From Escherichia coli (lineage in GTDB: Bacteria > Pseudomonadota > Gammaproteobacteria > Enterobacterales > Enterobacteriaceae), in assembly GCF_017348835.2 (NCBI RefSeq), contig NZ_CP071375.1: DNA of 64,000 nt. One strand, given 5' to 3'. Position 1 is the first letter of the stretch; the number at the start of each line of letters is the position of its first letter. This document shows positions 39,822 to 46,562 of this stretch, one piece after another. A program made the translations under genes and the position numbers. The notes beneath the pieces are model-generated. The model saw only the letters and a program-made list of their open reading frames with translations. It had not been told where the DNA came from and made no database searches.

Positions 39822-40733
39822 ATGCGACTATTTAACTGGCGACGTCAGGCGGTGTTAAACGCCATGCCACTGGTCAAACCTGACCAGGTACGTACACCGT
39901 GGCATGAATTCTGGCGACGATTTCGCCGTCAGCATATGGCGATGACCGCCGCATTGTTCGTTATTTTATTGATTGTGGTGGCCATTTTTGCACGCTGGAT
40001 CGCTCCCTATGACGCCGAAAATTATTTTGATTATGACAATCTGAATAACGGACCTTCTTTGCAGCACTGGTTTGGCGTCGATTCACTGGGGCGTGACATT
40101 TTCAGCCGTGTCCTGGTTGGTGCGCAAATCTCGCTGGCGGCGGGCGTGTTTGCCGTGTTTATCGGTGCGGCGATCGGGACGTTGCTGGGCTTGTTGGCTG
40201 GATATTATGAAGGCTGGTGGGATCGGCTGATCATGCGCATTTGCGATGTGCTGTTTGCCTTCCCGGGGATTTTACTGGCGATCGCTGTTGTTGCGGTGTT
40301 GGGAAGCGGCATTGCTAACGTGATTATCGCAGTCGCCATTTTTTCCATCCCCGCGTTTGCCCGACTGGTGCGCGGCAACACGCTGGTGTTGAAACAGCAA
40401 ACCTTTATTGAGTCAGCGCGCAGTATTGGTGCCAGCGATATGACCATTTTATTGCGTCATATCTTGCCTGGGACCGTCTCGTCTATCGTGGTGTTTTTCA
40501 CCATGCGCATTGGCACCTCGATTATCTCTGCCGCCAGCCTGTCATTTCTCGGCCTCGGTGCGCAACCGCCGACACCAGAGTGGGGAGCAATGCTCAATGA
40601 GGCACGAGCGGATATGGTTATCGCGCCGCATGTCGCTATTTTTCCGGCCCTGGCTATTTTTCTGACCGTACTGGCGTTCAATTTGTTGGGCGATGGTTTA
40701 CGCGATGCGCTGGATCCGAAAATTAAAGGATAG
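39822..40733 (+). CDS. gsiD: Glutathione ABC importer permease GsiD
   Basis: 303-aa membrane ORF, DppC/OppC-like. Confidence 0.92.
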
Positions 40734-40909
40734 TTACGTTTGAATATTGCTTGAAAGAGTAATCACCTCACAGGAAATTATTGCCCTAAGCAAGTGTTGT
40801 AACTTTCTGCTGATTTTGTAGAATCGGGTAATTTGGTTAAAAAGCCGCAGCAAGGGACTGTTTTGCAGCGGCACAGCGTTCAGACAGTTATTTTGTTAAA
40901 TGTATTAAC

Positions 40910-43258
40910 ATGCTGAGTTTATACGAAAAGATAAAGATAAGGCTGATAATTTTATTTTTATTGGCAGCACTGTCATTTATTGGCCTTTTTTTCATCATTA
41001 ACTATCAACTGGTATCGGAACGCGCGGTAAAACGTGCCGATAGCCGCTTTGAACTTATTCAGAAAAACGTTGGCTATTTCTTTAAAGATATTGAACGTTC
41101 GGCCCTGACATTAAAGGACTCACTGTATTTATTAAAAAATACAGAGGAGATTCAACGCGCTGTGATCCTGAAAATGGAAATGATGCCATTTTTAGACTCG
41201 GTGGGACTGGTACTTGATGATAATAAATATTATCTCTTTTCGCGGAGGGCGAACGATAAAATCGTTGTTTATCATCAGGAACAAGTAAATGGACCGCTTG
41301 TCGACGAGTCAGGGCGGGTTATTTTTGCCGATTTTAACCCATCGAAACGACCGTGGTCGGTGGCTTCAGATGACTCTAACAACAGCTGGAATCCGGCCTA
41401 CAATTGCTTTGATCGTCCGGGTAAAAAATGTATCTCTTTTACGCTACGCATCAACGGCAAAGATCACGATTTGTTAGCGGTGGATAAAATTCATGTCGAT
41501 TTAAACTGGCGATATCTGAACGAGTATCTTGATCAAATCAGCGCTAATGATGAAGTTCTATTTTTGAAACAAGGCCATGAGATCATTGCCAAGAATCAAC
41601 TCGCTCGTGAAAAACTGATTATTTATAATAGCGAAGGTAATTATAATATTATTGATTCTGTCGATACTAAATATATCGAAAAAACATCAGCGGTGCCAAA
41701 CAACGCATTATTCGAAATCTATTTTTATTATCCTGCCGGTAATTTATTGAACGCGTCAGATAAACTTTTTTATTTACCGTTTGCTTTCATTATTATCGTA
41801 TTGCTGGTGGTTTATTTAATGACCACTCGTGTGTTCCGTCGGCAATTTTCTGAAATGACCGAGCTGGTTAATACGCTGGCATTTTTGCCCGACTCAACGG
41901 ATCAAATCGAGGCTCTGAAAATTCGCGAAGGCGATGCGAAAGAGATTATCAGCATCAAAAATTCGATCGCGGAAATGAAAGATGCCGAAATTGAACGGTC
42001 AAATAAATTGCTCTCACTGATCTCTTACGATCAGGAAAGCGGTTTTATTAAAAACATGGCGATTATTGAGTCCAACAATAATCAGTATCTGGCTGTGGGG
42101 ATCATCAAACTGTGTGGTCTGGAAGCCGTGGAAGCGGTGTTTGGTGTTGATGAACGCAATAAAATCGTCAGGAAATTGTGTCAGCGAATTGCCGAGAAAT
42201 ATGCGCAATGCTGCGATATCGTGACATTCAATGCCGATCTCTATTTACTTCTGTGTCGGGAAAATGTACAGACATTTACCCGTAAAATAGCGATGGTAAA
42301 CGATTTTGACAGCAGCTTTGGCTACCGCAATCTGCGCATCCATAAGTCTGCCATTTGTGAACCTTTGCAGGGGGAAAACGCCTGGAGTTACGCAGAAAAA
42401 CTGAAACTGGCGATTTCCAGTATCCGTGACCATATGTTCTCCGAGTTTATTTTCTGTGATGACGCGAAACTCAACGAAATAGAAGAGAATATCTGGATTG
42501 CGCGTAATATTCGCCATGCAATGGAAATTGGCGAACTATTCCTCGTCTATCAACCGATCGTTGATATTAACACCCGCGCCATTCTGGGCGCGGAGGCGTT
42601 GTGCCGTTGGGTGTCTGCGGAGCGGGGGATCATTTCACCGCTGAAGTTCATTACCATTGCTGAAGATATCGGGTTTATCAATGAGCTGGGTTATCAGATT
42701 ATTAAAACGGCAATGGGTGAATTCAGACATTTTAGTCAGCGTGCGTCGCTGAAGGATGATTTCTTACTGCATATTAATGTTTCGCCCTGGCAGTTAAACG
42801 AACCGCACTTTCATGAGCGTTTTACCACCATCATGAAAGAAAATGGCCTGAAGGCGAACAGCCTCTGTGTTGAGATCACTGAAACCGTGATCGAGCGAAT
42901 TAATGAACATTTTTATCTCAATATTGAACAACTGCGTAAACAAGGGGTACGGATATCGATTGATGACTTTGGCACCGGTTTGTCAAACCTGAAACGTTTT
43001 TATGAAATTAATCCAGACAGCATAAAGGTGGACTCGCAATTTACCGGCGATATTTTCGGTACTGCGGGAAAAATTGTGCGCATTATTTTCGATCTGGCAC
43101 GCTATAACCGGATCCCGGTGATTGCGGAAGGCGTAGAGAGCGAAGACGTTGCGCGCGAATTAATCAAATTAGGATGTGTTCAGGCTCAGGGGTATCTGTA
43201 CCAGAAACCCATGCCATTCTCCGCCTGGGATAAAAGTGGAAAATTAGTAAAAGAGTAG
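40910..43258 (+). CDS. pdeI: c-di-GMP phosphodiesterase PdeI (YliE), membrane-anchored EAL-domain protein
   Basis: 782-aa ORF; N-terminal TM segment, periplasmic region, C-terminal EAL domain (GAEALCRW). Confidence 0.88.
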
Positions 43259-43265
43259 TTTACGT

Positions 43266-44594
43266 ATGTCCAGAATCAATAAGTTCGTACTTACAGTCAG
43301 TCTGCTGATTTTTATCATGATTTCAGCAGTTGCCTGCGGGATCTACACTCAAATGGTAAAGGAACGGGTGTATGGCCTGAAACAGTCCGTTATTGATACT
43401 GCTTTTGCGGTGGCAAATATTGCTGAATATCGGCGTAGCGTGGCAATTGATCTTATCAATACGCTAAATCCCACGGAGGAACAGCTGTTGGTTGGCTTAC
43501 GCACAGCTTACGCTGACTCGGTTTCACCCTCTTACTTGTACGATGTGGGTCCTTATCTGATTTCCAGTGACGAATGTATTCAGGTAAAGGAGTTCGAGAA
43601 AAATTATTGTGCAGATATTATGCAGGTTGTGAAGTATCGACATGTCAAAAATACAGGGTTTATCTCTTTTGACGGTAAAACCTTCGTCTATTACCTCTAT
43701 CCGGTAACTCACAATCGTAGTCTGATATTTTTGCTTGGTCTGGAGCGTTTTTCTTTACTGTCAAAATCGCTGGCGATGGACAGCGAGAACCTGATGTTCT
43801 CTCTGTTTAAGAACGGTAAACCGGTGACCGGTGATGAATATAATGCTAAAAACGCCATCTTCACCGTTTCGGAAGCGATGGAACACTTCTCTTATTTGCC
43901 GACCGGATTGTACGTATTTGCGTATAAAAAAGATGTTTATTTGCGGGTCTGTACATTGATTATTTTCTTTGCCGCATTGGTGGCAGTGATATCGGGTGCC
44001 AGTTGCCTCTATCTGGTACGCAGAGTGATTAATCGTGGTATTGTGGAGAAAGAAGCCATCATTAATAACCATTTTGAACGCGTACTGGATGGCGGGCTTT
44101 TCTTTTCGGCTGCCGATGTCAAAAAACTCTACAGTATGTATAACTCGGCGTTCCTGGACGACCTGACCAAAGCAATGGGCAGAAAATCCTTTGACGAAGA
44201 TTTAAAAGCGCTGCCGGAAAAAGGCGGTTATTTGTGCCTGTTTGATGTCGATAAATTCAAAAACATTAACGACACCTTCGGTCATTTGCTGGGTGATGAA
44301 GTGTTGATGAAAGTGGTGAAAATCCTTAAATCACAGATCCCGGTAGATAAAGGTAAAGTCTACCGCTTCGGCGGTGACGAATTTGCGGTGATTTATACGG
44401 GTGGAACGCTGGAAGAGTTGCTATCGATTCTAAAAGAAATCGTTCATTTCCAGGTGGGAAGCATTAATTTAAGCACCAGTATCGGTGTAGCGCATTCAAA
44501 TGAATGTCCTACCGTCGAACGCTTGAAAATGCTGGCGGATGAGCGGCTGTATAAGAGTAAGAAAAACGGCAGGGCTCAGATTAGCTGGCAGTAA
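43266..44594 (+). CDS. dgcI: Diguanylate cyclase DgcI (YliF), GGDEF domain
   Basis: 442-aa ORF with intact RFGGDEF active-site motif and N-terminal TM segments. Confidence 0.88.
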
Positions 44595-44603
44595 TCATTA
44601 TTC

Positions 44604-44634
44604 GCAGGCCGGACAAATGATTTTGCCCGGCCTG
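44604..44634. terminator. Hairpin between convergent dgcI and rimO
   Basis: caggccgg...ccggcctg 8-bp stem with long loop. Confidence 0.4.
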
Positions 44635-44640
44635 AATTAA

Positions 44641-45966
44641 TTAAACCCGGCTACCCCACAAATCGTACTCATCGGCGTGCTCGACTTTCACACGCAGGAT
44701 ATCACCCGGCTTAACGTTGGTTTCACCATTGAGATAAACCGCACCGTCGATTTCCGGTGCATCTGCCATGCTGCGACCAATCGCGCCTTCTTCGTCCACT
44801 TCGTCGATAATCACCAGAATTTCACGGCCCACTTTTTCTTGCAGGCGCTCGGCGGAAATCTGCTGCTGCAGCTGCATGAAACGGTTCCAGCGTTCTTCTT
44901 TCACTTCTTCCGGAACCTGGTCAGGCAGGGCATTGGCGTCTGCACCTTCAACCGGGCTGTATTTAAAGCAGCCAACGCGATCCAGACGCGCTTCTTTCAG
45001 GAAGTCGAGTAGCATCTGGAAATCTTCTTCCGTCTCGCCAGGGAAGCCGACAATAAAGGTTGATCGTAGGGTCAGTTCCGGGCAGATTTCGCGCCACTGT
45101 TTGATGCGCGCCAGTTGGCGATCTACAGAACCCGGACGCTTCATCAGTTTGAGAATGCGCGGGCTGGCGTGCTGCAACGGAATGTCCAGATACGGCAGGA
45201 TTTTGCCTTCTGCCATCAGTGGGATGACGTCGTCCACATGCGGATAAGGGTAAACGTAGTGCAGACGTGTCCAGATCCCCAGTTTCGATAACTGTTCGCA
45301 CAGGCTGACCATGCTGGTTTTTACCGGCTCGCCGTTGTGGAAGCCAGTACGATGTTTAACATCAACGCCATAGGCGGAAGTATCCTGCGAGATCACCAGA
45401 ATCTCTTTAACGCCCGCATCTACCAGACGTTTCGCTTCACTTAACACTTCGCCAATCGGACGGCTCACCAGGTCGCCGCGCATAGACGGAATAATGCAGA
45501 AGGTGCAGCGGTGATTACAGCCTTCAGAAATTTTCAGATAGGCATAATGACGCGGCGTCAGTTTGACACCTTGTTCTGGCACCAGGCTCAGGAATGGGTT
45601 GTGTTTCGGTTTTGGCACGTAGTGATGAACGTGCTCCAGAACCTGCTCATAGCTATGAGGCCCGGTGATTTCCAGCACTTTCGGGTGGACTTCGCGGATC
45701 TGATCTTCTTTTGCCCCCAGACAACCGGTCACAATTACCTTGCCGTTTTCATTCAACGCTTCACCAATGGCTTCCAGTGATTCTTGTACCGCGCTGTCAA
45801 TAAAGCCGCAGGTGTTGACGATCACCATGTCCGCATCGTCATAGCTCGGTACCACGTCATAACCTTCAGTGCGTAGTTCGGTGAGAATACGCTCTGAATC
45901 GACAAGGTTTTTCGGACAGCCAAGGGAAACAAAGCCGATTTTCGGCTGGGGAGTTACTTTGCTCAT
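44641..45966 (-). CDS. rimO: Ribosomal protein S12 methylthiotransferase RimO
   Basis: 441-aa ORF; radical-SAM CxxxCxxC (CNHRCTFC) plus MTTase N-terminal cysteines. Confidence 0.93.
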
Positions 45967-46178: not shown

Positions 46179-46562
46179 ATGTTCGTTGACAGACAGCGAA
46201 TCGATCTGCTGAACCGGTTGATCGACGCACGCGTTGACCTCGCCGCATACGTGCAACTGAGGAAGGCAAAAGGATACATGTCCGTCAGCGAAAGCAATCA
46301 TCTACGAGATAACTTTTTTAAACTGAATCGCGAACTGCACGATAAATCGCTGCGGTTGAATCTTCATCTGGATCAGGAAGAGTGGAGTGCTCTTCATCAT
46401 GCTGAAGAAGCATTAGCGACAGCCGCAGTATGTTTGATGAGTGGGCACCATGATTGCCCGACTGTTATTACCGTCAACGCCGATAAGCTTGAAAATTGTC
46501 TGATGAGCTTAACGCTGAGTATCCAGAGCCTGCAGAAGCACGCCATGCTTGAGAAGGCCTGA
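46179..46562 (+). CDS. bssR: Biofilm regulator BssR
   Basis: ORF 46146..46562 trimmed to MFVDRQRIDLL start (127 aa) after GAGGAGG RBS. Confidence 0.88.
   Translation: MFVDRQRIDLLNRLIDARVDLAAYVQLRKAKGYMSVSESNHLRDNFFKLNRELHDKSLRLNLHLDQEEWSALHHAEEALATAAVCLMSGHHDCPTVITVNADKLENCLMSLTLSIQSLQKHAMLEKA

Follow-up and report, generated by a model that had tools for sequence, protein, structure and literature searches.

The locus analysed here raises two questions: whether two neighbouring c-di-GMP genes of Escherichia coli, one of the EAL type and the other of the GGDEF type, work together as a local unit, and whether the product of the first gene lowers or raises c-di-GMP. The window, that is, the whole 64,000-nucleotide stretch of E. 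coli DNA that was analysed, contains the two genes as follows:

40910..43258, plus strand, pdeI (yliE) coding sequence, 782 aa, ATG start (ORF list, RefSeq, Pfam, NCBIfam).
43259..43265, plus strand, 7-nt spacer tttacgt from the pdeI stop to the dgcI start (sequence).
43266..44594, plus strand, dgcI (yliF) coding sequence, 442 aa, ATG start (ORF list, RefSeq, Pfam, NCBIfam).

The adjacency, the co-orientation and the 7-bp gap given in the initial annotation can be read directly from the ORF list and the sequence, and its gene names are correct, since RefSeq annotates 100% identical DNA as pdeI and dgcI, with gsiD and rimO as flanks. That is to say, the pair is the E. coli core-genome pdeI (yliE) and dgcI (yliF), two real conserved genes and no chance pattern. 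Of 5426 complete E. coli genomes, 5425 have the locus, between gsiD and rimO; in 5380 of them it covers 80% or more of the query, and its DNA is 95-100% identical across the species. K-12 PdeI (YliE, b0833) and DgcI (YliF, b0834) are the same genes, with the same flanks, domain architecture and motif content; compared with the K-12-type pair, the part of pdeI coding for the sensor is an uncommon allele here, identity of at least 99% being found in 26 genomes for this part versus 3956 for the EAL-coding part. The GC content of the pair is 42-43%, against 51% in the window and 53% in gsiD, and IS1 insertions occur in pdeI of some strains. The literature already covers the genes, their domain families and their pairing, and nothing here is new as a discovery; as the product of a scan the locus is of ordinary value, since both are core genes that already bear names, in the bacterium that has been studied best, and curated domain families have been built on them. 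What is new in this analysis is the fold prediction of both sensors, the narrowness of the sensor families, and the adjacency of EAL and GAPES2-GGDEF genes across related loci.

In terms of architecture, PdeI consists in order of a TM segment, a periplasmic sensor (CHASE9), a second TM segment, a linker, a divergent GGDEF-like domain and the EAL domain, and DgcI of a TM segment, a dCache-like sensor (GAPES2), a TM segment and the GGDEF domain:

41006..41779, plus strand, PdeI periplasmic sensor, aa 33-290, predicted tandem-PDC/dCache-like (AF2, Foldseek).
42005..42424, plus strand, PdeI mid-domain, very divergent GGDEF-like, about aa 366-505 (hhalign, NCBIfam, literature).
42503..43210, plus strand, PdeI EAL domain, aa 532-767 (Pfam, alignments, PMC3484386 Table 1).
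43344..43952, plus strand, DgcI periplasmic sensor, aa 27-229 (GAPES2), predicted tandem-PDC/dCache-like (AF2, Foldseek).
44148..44576, plus strand, DgcI GGDEF domain, aa 295-437 (Pfam, alignments, PMC3484386 Table 1).

Strong hydrophobic segments bracket the sensor region in both proteins (about 10-32 and 288-308 in PdeI, about 7-29 and 227-250 in DgcI), and it holds that both are membrane anchored, each with a separate periplasmic sensor. Pfam gives 234.6 bits for the PdeI EAL domain (PF00563, cut-off 31.3, aa 532-767) and 210 bits for CHASE9 (aa 35-150), and in DgcI 472 bits for GAPES2 (aa 26-229) and 87.9 bits for GGDEF (PF00990, cut-off 23.8, aa 295-437). The description of PdeI as a sensor plus an EAL domain is right for those parts, but it overlooks the approximately 220 aa between the second TM segment and the EAL domain, which hold the linker and the divergent GGDEF-like domain. 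When this mid-domain was aligned by hhalign with 70 diverse GGDEF domains, an in-register match over 87 columns was obtained (P=0.0084), which is weak, with a probability of 4.8%; the NCBIfam GepA and DosP whole-protein models also align through it. In the literature it is labelled as a divergent or degenerate GGDEF domain (bioRxiv 10.1101/2025.05.09.653004, PMC11651652).

As for the EAL domain, its active site was checked and every catalytic residue is present in PdeI, the complete set being Q548, E562-A-L-x-R566, N623, E655-I-T-E658, D685-D686, K706, E740 and Q760. These residues, T657 included, do not vary among four lineages whose identity is 31-38%, and they align with those of solved active phosphodiesterase EAL domains, to which phmmer E values reach down to 1e-43. 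The canonical EAL loop-6 motif is DFG(T/A)GYSS; this loop reads [10 protein letters not shown] in PdeI and DDFG[TCS]GL[SA][ND]L in its family, so that the start of the motif survives while its GYSS tail is altered family-wide. The same verdict, that the catalytic residues of the PdeI EAL domain are complete, is given in Table 1 of PMC3484386.

DgcI shows an intact motif series, [15 protein letters not shown]...GDEV...RFGGDEF, in which RFGGDEF occupies aa 367-373 (nt 44364-44384). Across five lineages neither the GGDEF residues nor those upstream of them that bind metal and GTP vary ([26 protein letters not shown]), and PMC3484386 Table 1 concurs that the GGDEF residues are complete. Pfam, motif and hydrophobic segments thus agree on a membrane-anchored GGDEF protein with intact RFGGDEF, just as had been claimed. 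The RxxD I-site is absent from DgcI, which has VDKG five residues upstream of GGDEF, and from all paralogues; therefore, product inhibition by the I-site route is not expected. It has been reported that Shigella dgcI gives the highest c-di-GMP among four cyclases by LC-MS/MS, an effect abolished by the GG->AA exchange (PMC11327459), and that with E. coli DgcI a c-di-GMP reporter goes up, an effect that D371A abolishes (PMC11757272). In K-12 under standard conditions the DgcI protein is reported to be below detection while other enzymes are measurable.

For the two periplasmic domains, fold prediction was carried out by AF2 and Foldseek, and both come out as tandem-PDC/dCache-like. The model of the PdeI sensor (aa 33-290) has a pLDDT of 85.3 and a pTM of 0.81, that of the DgcI sensor (aa 27-229) a pLDDT of 85.5 and a pTM of 0.75, the alignments behind both being shallow (9-10 sequences). 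The best Foldseek matches of the former are the dCache ligand-binding domains of 7k5n, CqsR, Mlp24/37, KinD and PctA (E down to 3.7e-8), with 68 PDB matches at E<=1e-3, mostly dCache ligand-binding domains; those of the latter are KinD, CqsR, LuxQ and Mlp24 (E down to 4.5e-6). Both sensors are accordingly predicted to be tandem-PDC (dCache-like) folds, at a good level of confidence (pLDDT about 85), and the fold predicted in common with the dCache_1 domains of PctA, Mlp24/Mlp37, Tlp3, KinD, CqsR and the A. caviae cyclase 7k5n is a long N-terminal helix with two stacked PDC modules. At the level of profiles, Pfam gives CHASE9 and GAPES2 only, with no significant match to dCache_1, and a PDB profile search with the PdeI sensor returned only a non-significant match to 7k5n (E=1.1). 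BLASTP of the PdeI against the DgcI sensor region found no similarity (E=0.35), and an origin of the two sensors by recent duplication is rejected at the sequence level despite the common tandem-PDC fold.

The PdeI sensor contains F142-x4-R147-x-W149, W160 and Y164, together with an invariant Cys pair (C166/C174); the DgcI sensor has an invariant Cys pair as well (C104/C115). The AA_motif of dCache_1AA domains comprises Y121, R126, W128, Y144 and D173 in PctA numbering (PMC8915833). Judged by alignment, F142, R147, W149 and Y164 of PdeI appear to match its spacing and to be kept in most lineages, whereas the equivalent of PctA D173 is ambiguous, D192 being unconserved and D197, which is Asp in three lineages and Glu in a fourth, being conserved but differently spaced. 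The R-x-W...Y constellation of PdeI resembles that half of the dCache_1 amino-acid motif which binds the carboxylate, as far as the residues indicate; PdeI appears to share [F/Y]-x4-R-x-W ... W...Y with that motif in register, and DgcI is without it. The earlier remark that the ligands of both sensors are not evident from sequence stands insofar as no ligand is assigned, but the domains are no longer opaque, since both model as dCache-like and PdeI keeps this constellation. An exhaustive search of 1.84 billion representatives with PdeI aa 1-330 gave only 34 matches, and when the sensor regions of both proteins were put through word-indexed searches, close E. coli/Shigella fragments were all that came back. 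Both sensor families are extremely narrow, being limited to Escherichia and mobile elements among the matches listed, and for such a family without a known signal the ligand search is narrowed by the predicted folds together with the R-x-W...Y pocket.

Two features that may bear on expression were noted on either side of the pair, outside the coding sequences:

40797..40824, plus strand, candidate sigma-70 promoter TTGTAA-16-TAGAAT (consensus scan, 9/12 matches).
44605..44636, no strand assigned, stable hairpin, possible bidirectional transcript end (RNAfold).

The promoter lies within the AT-rich 176-bp gap between gsiD and pdeI and is a candidate only, because the regional count of such sites equals the shuffle expectation; a construct with 250 bp 5' of pdeI is reported to drive expression (PMC11651652). 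At the junction, the pdeI TAG stop ends at 43258 and the dgcI ATG begins at 43266, with a weak AAGAG Shine-Dalgarno-like sequence inside the final pdeI codons, and the scan found no terminator-like site. Both genes are published as increased at 37 C and increased with BolA. The pair thus looks operon-like in its 7-bp gap, its terminator-free junction in the scan and its published co-regulation by temperature and BolA. Binding of RpoN holoenzyme at the yliE/yliF junction has been reported by gSELEX, and a weak sigma-54-like site exists within pdeI (best at 42970, 9/12 matches); therefore, dgcI may also have a promoter of its own. A sigma-54 promoter for dgcI is not claimed, the site at 42970 being barely above chance. 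The hairpin sits in the 46 bp that separate dgcI from the convergent rimO (RNAfold -20.3 kcal/mol on the plus strand, -23.5 on the minus strand), carries no T-run and was missed by the terminator scan. The biofilm regulator gene bssR (MFVDRQRIDLL..., 46179-46562), to which the initial annotation had drawn attention, begins 1.58 kb past the dgcI stop, with the convergent rimO (44641-45966, minus strand) standing between. A functional tie to bssR is rejected: rimO intervenes, and the recurrent neighbour of the paralogous cassettes is a bcsA-type cellulose synthase gene and, among the cassettes listed, never bssR. The proximity of bssR looks incidental.

The comparison with related loci, found with the PdeI alignment as query, carries the argument further. 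Among the matches listed there are eight sets of such loci, namely the E. coli and E. albertii chromosomal orthologues (L011, L012) and six paralogous sets at 27-41% identity on plasmids, integrative elements or chromosomes (L001, L002, L004, L005, L006, L008, L009, L013, L014), and in all of them a GAPES2-GGDEF gene immediately follows the EAL gene, with a spacing from overlap up to 39 bp. The pairwise identities of the PdeI and DgcI families run parallel in their matrices, and in one plasmid lineage pdeI is broken into three ORFs. From this adjacency it follows that the pair is an inherited cassette, which probably acts as a local c-di-GMP module. In three of the six paralogous lineages a gene for a PilZ-bearing BcsA-type cellulose synthase follows (a bcsA-like gene 9 bp downstream in L013, and bcsA downstream in L001, L002 and L005). 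YliE/YliF paralogue pairs beside accessory bcs clusters have likewise been reported (bioRxiv 10.1101/2025.05.09.653004). These pairs share with the window pair the gene order and architecture (CHASE9...EAL, then GAPES2-GGDEF), the same catalytic residues, the periplasmic Cys pairs and the missing I-site, at 31-41% identity over the full length and 27-34% in the sensor parts. They differ in what follows, namely bcsA-bcsB in three of the six paralogous lineages and the convergent rimO in the case of the window pair; no c-di-GMP effector gene adjoins the pair at the core locus. That the two gene families strictly adjoin in every related locus listed lends strength to the idea of a coupled local module.

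The best explanation, to which we give a probability of roughly 0.7, is that this known core pair is a co-transcribed, sensor-controlled make-and-break unit with PdeI as a latent phosphodiesterase and DgcI as the source. That is to say, pdeI and dgcI would be co-transcribed, judging from their layout, and their products would together set c-di-GMP locally. DgcI, in keeping with its published in vivo activity, would supply c-di-GMP, and PdeI would be a normally latent phosphodiesterase gated through its periplasmic sensor, linker and degenerate GGDEF-like domain, unable to synthesise c-di-GMP itself. The ancestral unit may have served the adjacent cellulose synthase, while the target of the core locus would be unlinked.

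The published data on PdeI itself conflict, and it is here that the rival explanations have to be weighed. The label phosphodiesterase agrees with the catalytic residues, but it is only a prediction, and overexpression of PdeI is reported to raise c-di-GMP about 11-fold by HPLC-MS/MS; moreover, a c-di-GMP sensor correlates with the level of PdeI and G412S abolishes the overexpression effect, so that PMC11651652 reads PdeI as a c-di-GMP synthetase. On the other hand, in the work cited in PMC11651652, so far as it is related there, G412S came up as a suppressor in a strain deleted for pdeH, where it lowered c-di-GMP and restored motility, which fits phosphodiesterase activation. Taken at face value, the overexpression results would make PdeI a diguanylate cyclase by way of its divergent GGDEF domain and the pair two cyclases, which is highly improbable in view of the mid-domain. 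At the GGDEF position it reads NADLY (aa 441-445), its paralogues NKNKY, SPYKY and SDKRF, so that the position is unconserved, and in the hhalign register the metal-binding Asp and the K/N/D substrate positions are replaced as well. Pfam even at E<=10, a PDB profile search and an hhalign comparison with the DgcI family all failed to find a GGDEF domain in it, while the EAL domain is wholly intact and invariant. With a GGDEF-like domain devoid of any catalytic signature, the published rise in c-di-GMP would therefore be indirect, most simply via DgcI, and the activating G412S (codon 42143-42145), which falls within this domain, would lie in the part proposed to gate the phosphodiesterase. The idea of an effect through DgcI is weakened because DgcI protein is undetectable in K-12 under standard conditions. 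A further possibility, which we hold to be unlikely, is a physical sensor complex of PdeI with DgcI, PdeI serving as a partner switch. By default its EAL domain would be off and PdeI would stimulate or stabilise DgcI, which would explain the 11-fold rise; a periplasmic signal would flip PdeI to a hydrolysing state mimicked by G412S, and this signal could be a ligand resembling a carboxylate or an amino acid, bound in the R147/W149/Y164 pocket, or else the C166/C174 pair in one of its redox states. The cassette would then have evolved as a dedicated on/off controller of the neighbouring PilZ cellulose synthase and have been re-used in the core genome for a subpopulation (persister/biofilm) switch.

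It is improbable that the two genes are mere neighbours, that is, independently regulated enzymes that feed the global c-di-GMP pool without coupling. Many unlinked GGDEF and EAL genes exist in E. coli, and this reading also draws on the RpoN binding at the junction, on the scarcity of DgcI in K-12 and on the fact that no physical interaction of PdeI and DgcI is reported in the literature searched, DgcI being toxic in a systematic two-hybrid screen. It leaves unaccounted for the order and the gap of at most 39 bp that are kept in the eight locus sets listed, six of them paralogous and on different replicons, the parallel identity matrices, and the near confinement of both sensor families to the cassette among the matches listed. 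Still less probable is that the core pair is the decaying, largely silent remainder of a cellulose-synthase cassette once acquired horizontally, and has no current role. The low GC content, the very low or undetectable K-12 expression, the IS1 insertions and the three-ORF pdeI of one plasmid lineage agree with it, as does the core locus being without the adjacent bcsA of three paralogous lineages; yet both ORFs are intact here and well covered in nearly all genomes, and the catalytic residues are invariant. Phenotypes of deletion or expression have been published for adherence (PMC3484386), for invasion and plaque size (PMC11327459) and for persister and biofilm subpopulations (PMC11651652), and induction of both genes at 37 C likewise speaks against decay. 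As to the make-and-break unit, the residual value of the finding lies in the contradiction in the literature about the direction in which PdeI shifts c-di-GMP, and a PdeI without a cyclase active site beside a constant dgcI-family neighbour points to a simple resolution in which PdeI acts through DgcI.

Among known systems, the CSS-domain phosphodiesterases of E. coli, such as PdeC, are controlled by a periplasmic disulfide. Like PdeI they are membrane EAL enzymes whose periplasmic domain has a conserved Cys pair; fold and family differ, PdeI is without the CSS motif, and a C166/C174 disulfide would be hypothetical. The PdeR/DgcM trigger module is another local c-di-GMP module of E. coli. At the Bcs cellulose synthase, DgcC/PdeK embody a like concept, in which a specific cyclase and a specific phosphodiesterase act on one target and not on the global pool (PMC7397504). 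The partners of DgcC/PdeK and of PdeR/DgcM are not encoded adjacently and their direct interactions have been shown, in contrast to PdeI/DgcI, for which none is reported in the literature searched; PdeI and DgcI, unlike these proteins, carry periplasmic sensors of their own. Finally, the paralogous cassettes that adjoin the PilZ-bearing BcsA form a parallel to DgcC/PdeK at Bcs.

The stretch analysed here belongs to the E. coli chromosome, and the two genes are the already known yliE-yliF (pdeI-dgcI) pair: its 4.5 kb are present, by megablast, in 5,425 of 5,426 complete E. coli genomes, the matches being annotated as pdeI and dgcI and flanked by gsiD and the convergent rimO.

Features of the pdeI-dgcI locus (window coordinates)
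40910–43258, + strand: pdeI ORF, 782 aa (ORF table); Pfam CHASE9 sensor aa 35–150, EAL aa 532–767
43266–44594, + strand: dgcI ORF, 442 aa (ORF table); Pfam GAPES2 sensor aa 26–229, GGDEF aa 295–437
41333–41401: PdeI F142...Y164, [F/Y]142-x4-R147-x-W149, W160...Y164
41405–41407, 41429–41431: PdeI cysteine pair C166, C174, invariant across divergent lineages
43575–43577, 43608–43610: DgcI cysteine pair C104, C115, invariant across divergent lineages
42970–42985: best sigma-54-like sequence, weak, TGGCACCGGTTTGTCA, 9/12, within the pdeI DDFGTG codons
44605–44636: strong GC-rich hairpin between dgcI and convergent rimO (46-bp gap), −20 to −23.5 kcal/mol

Two co-oriented ORFs 7 nt apart, EAL then GGDEF, had been described in the initial annotation, and this was confirmed by the ORF table and the sequence, in which a TAG stop is followed by the 7-nt spacer tttacgt and then ATG. 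bssR, placed near the pair, is indeed found at 46179–46562, about 1.6 kb on, but rimO intervenes on the opposite strand; the interpretation as a whole, a coupled make-and-break c-di-GMP module, is partly supported. The chromosomal locus was also found in five "plasmid" places, and dgcI occurs at 99.8% identity in CP088669.1 (match H11, 730 kb, labelled plasmid); such copies probably represent pieces of chromosome or wrongly assigned replicons. In two E. coli genomes, NZ_CP037903.1 (H6) and NZ_CP075731.1 (H7), pdeI is broken by an IS1 insertion, the halves being annotated "CHASE9 sensor domain-containing protein" and "cyclic diguanylate phosphodiesterase".

According to hydropathy, both proteins have two transmembrane segments, either side of the sensor region, and PdeI was located at the membrane by microscopy (PMC11651652). 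For the EAL domain of PdeI, alignments to solved EAL domains of active phosphodiesterases reach E = 1e-43, and the active-site check proposed earlier found every catalytic residue: Q548, E562 and R566 (EALCR), N623, E655-I-T-E658, D685-D686, K706, E740 and Q760. The loop after DDFG, usually TGYSSL in EAL domains, reads TGLSNL in PdeI and is altered throughout its family. The yliE residue table in PMC3484386 agrees with the complete catalytic set. The intact RFGGDEF ascribed to DgcI was borne out, its GGDEF domain carrying GDEV...RFGGDEF, and the RxxD I-site is absent from this domain. Cyclase activity of DgcI in vivo has been reported (PMC11327459, PMC11757272); the protein is also reported to be undetected in K-12 under standard conditions and toxic on overexpression.

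The view of PdeI as a sensor plus EAL protein holds for both parts, but it passes over about 220 residues between TM2 and EAL, part of which has been termed a divergent GGDEF domain (PMC11651652; bioRxiv 10.1101/2025.05.09.653004). This identity was not confirmed by Pfam, PDB profile search or family-to-family hhalign; against a profile of 70 GGDEF domains drawn from GGDEF-EAL proteins, hhalign gave an in-register match (P=0.0084), with NADLY aligned to GGDEF and G412 to the glycine of a conserved GH. The GGDEF-signature position varies among PdeI paralogues (NKNKY, SPYKY, SDKRF), and whatever its ancestry, the mid-domain lacks every catalytic residue of a cyclase.

The literature on whether PdeI lowers or raises c-di-GMP is in conflict. 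As cited in published work, the mid-region mutation G412S is a suppressor in a pdeH deletion strain, with c-di-GMP down and motility back, whereas overexpression of wild-type PdeI raised c-di-GMP 11-fold and G412S cancelled the rise (PMC11651652), whose authors name PdeI a synthetase. Judged from its sequence, PdeI offers no basis for c-di-GMP synthesis. Both published results would fit a PdeI that is a latent phosphodiesterase and, while off, promotes a cyclase; the conserved neighbour DgcI would be the obvious candidate for that cyclase. That the PdeI off state may promote DgcI is the one useful, testable idea from the pair.

Related PdeI-DgcI loci elsewhere (setting; gene spacing; downstream genes)
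L001, L002: IncHI1B plasmids; overlapping; bcsA-bcsB...bcsC
L004: beside TraI/integrase genes; 9 bp; mobile-element genes
L005, L006: NCBI assembly contigs; 32 bp or overlapping; bcsA-bcsB after transposase
L008, L009: Rep3 plasmid, PdeI homologue in three ORFs; 39 bp; IS elements
L013: E. coli E69 chromosome; 3 bp; PilZ cellulose synthase 9 bp on
L014: 5.6-kb MAG contig; overlapping

A further plasmid cassette copy (L003) is broken by IS1. A pattern-based scan that took a single genome for each species placed full-length PdeI, among the matches listed, only in E. coli, E. albertii, L013 and L014, and a GAPES2 gene lies directly downstream in all four (4/4). The PdeI/DgcI pairwise identities between lineages run parallel (0.36/0.41, 0.35/0.38, 0.31/0.33, 0.38/0.38, 0.31/0.31, 0.32/0.32); together with the adjacency across loci, this indicates that the pair is inherited as a unit. 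The pair is repeatedly tied to c-di-GMP-activated cellulose synthase, as likewise in a 2025 preprint (bioRxiv 10.1101/2025.05.09.653004). At L013 the synthase is BcsA-like and PilZ-bearing, with MFS and amino-acid permease genes upstream of the pair.

L013 (from CP089930.1; 4501–10392 in locus coordinates) holds a second, paralogous pdeI-like/dgcI-like pair at 40% identity. L014 (DYWT01000146.1) is labelled MAG Sporosarcina psychrophila, a Firmicute bin; its pair is of the enterobacterial plasmid type, 27–37% identical to the window proteins, and it is probably mis-binned mobile DNA. On the Rep3/CcdAB metagenome plasmid (L008 8001–10304, also L009 and L010), the PdeI homologue forms consecutive ORFs of 195, 295 and 248 aa, with an intact GAPES2-GGDEF gene downstream. 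Sequencing error is unlikely to explain this split because the same ORFs recur: the 195-aa ORF on four contigs, the 295-aa and 248-aa ORFs on both long-enough contigs (L008, L009).

Both genes are reported to be induced at 37 °C in CFT073 and by BolA. A promoter-like candidate sits 86 nt ahead of pdeI, where the frequency of such sites is no higher than in shuffled sequence, and the scan found no terminator-like site at the pdeI/dgcI junction. In the hairpin at 44605–44636 an internal mismatch precedes the 4-nt apical loop, and neither strand has a T-run. A published gSELEX study placed binding of the RpoN holoenzyme at the junction of yliE and yliF; the sigma-54-like site at 42970 lies about 300 nt upstream of dgcI, with a chance expectation of about 0.2 such sites per 400 nt.

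The GC content of the pair is 42–43% versus 51% for the window, ranging from 0.34 to 0.46 across 40600–44600 versus about 0.53 in gsiD and rimO, which points to an old insert, gained by horizontal transfer, with conserved housekeeping genes on either side. The sensor-coding part of pdeI (40910–41899) has at least 99% identity to the window in only 26 E. coli genomes, the EAL-coding part (42485–43258) in 3956. This leaves two readings: a sensor that varies far more than the catalytic domain, or a rare sensor allele in this strain, which matches pig isolates exactly.

Both sensor families are very narrow. Exhaustive HMMER with PdeI aa 1–330 gave only 34 matches among 1.84 billion representative proteins, almost all being fragments from E. 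coli, and the GAPES2 search found relatives only from Escherichia and Shigella. Truncated fragments predominate among the protein-database matches. Fold prediction, suggested earlier for both periplasmic domains, gave dCache-type matches for each: the confident AlphaFold2 model of PdeI aa 33–290 (pLDDT 85.3, pTM 0.81, shallow alignments) matches the ligand-binding domains of the proline-binding cyclase 7k5n, CqsR, Mlp24/37, KinD and PctA, and that of DgcI aa 27–229 (pLDDT 85.5, shallow alignment) matches KinD, CqsR, LuxQ and Mlp24. From these matches, both sensors are predicted to be tandem-PDC folds; in sequence comparison the two are unrelated to each other. Their cysteine pairs may form structural or redox-sensitive disulfides. 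The [F/Y]-x4-R-x-W of PdeI, with a Tyr 15 residues on, is conserved in most PdeI lineages, and the F142...Y164 region also falls in a weak alignment to 7k5n. Compared with the dCache_1 amino-acid motif, the PdeI counterpart of the acidic residue that binds the amino group is ambiguous, and F142...Y164 shares the register of the carboxylate-binding half.
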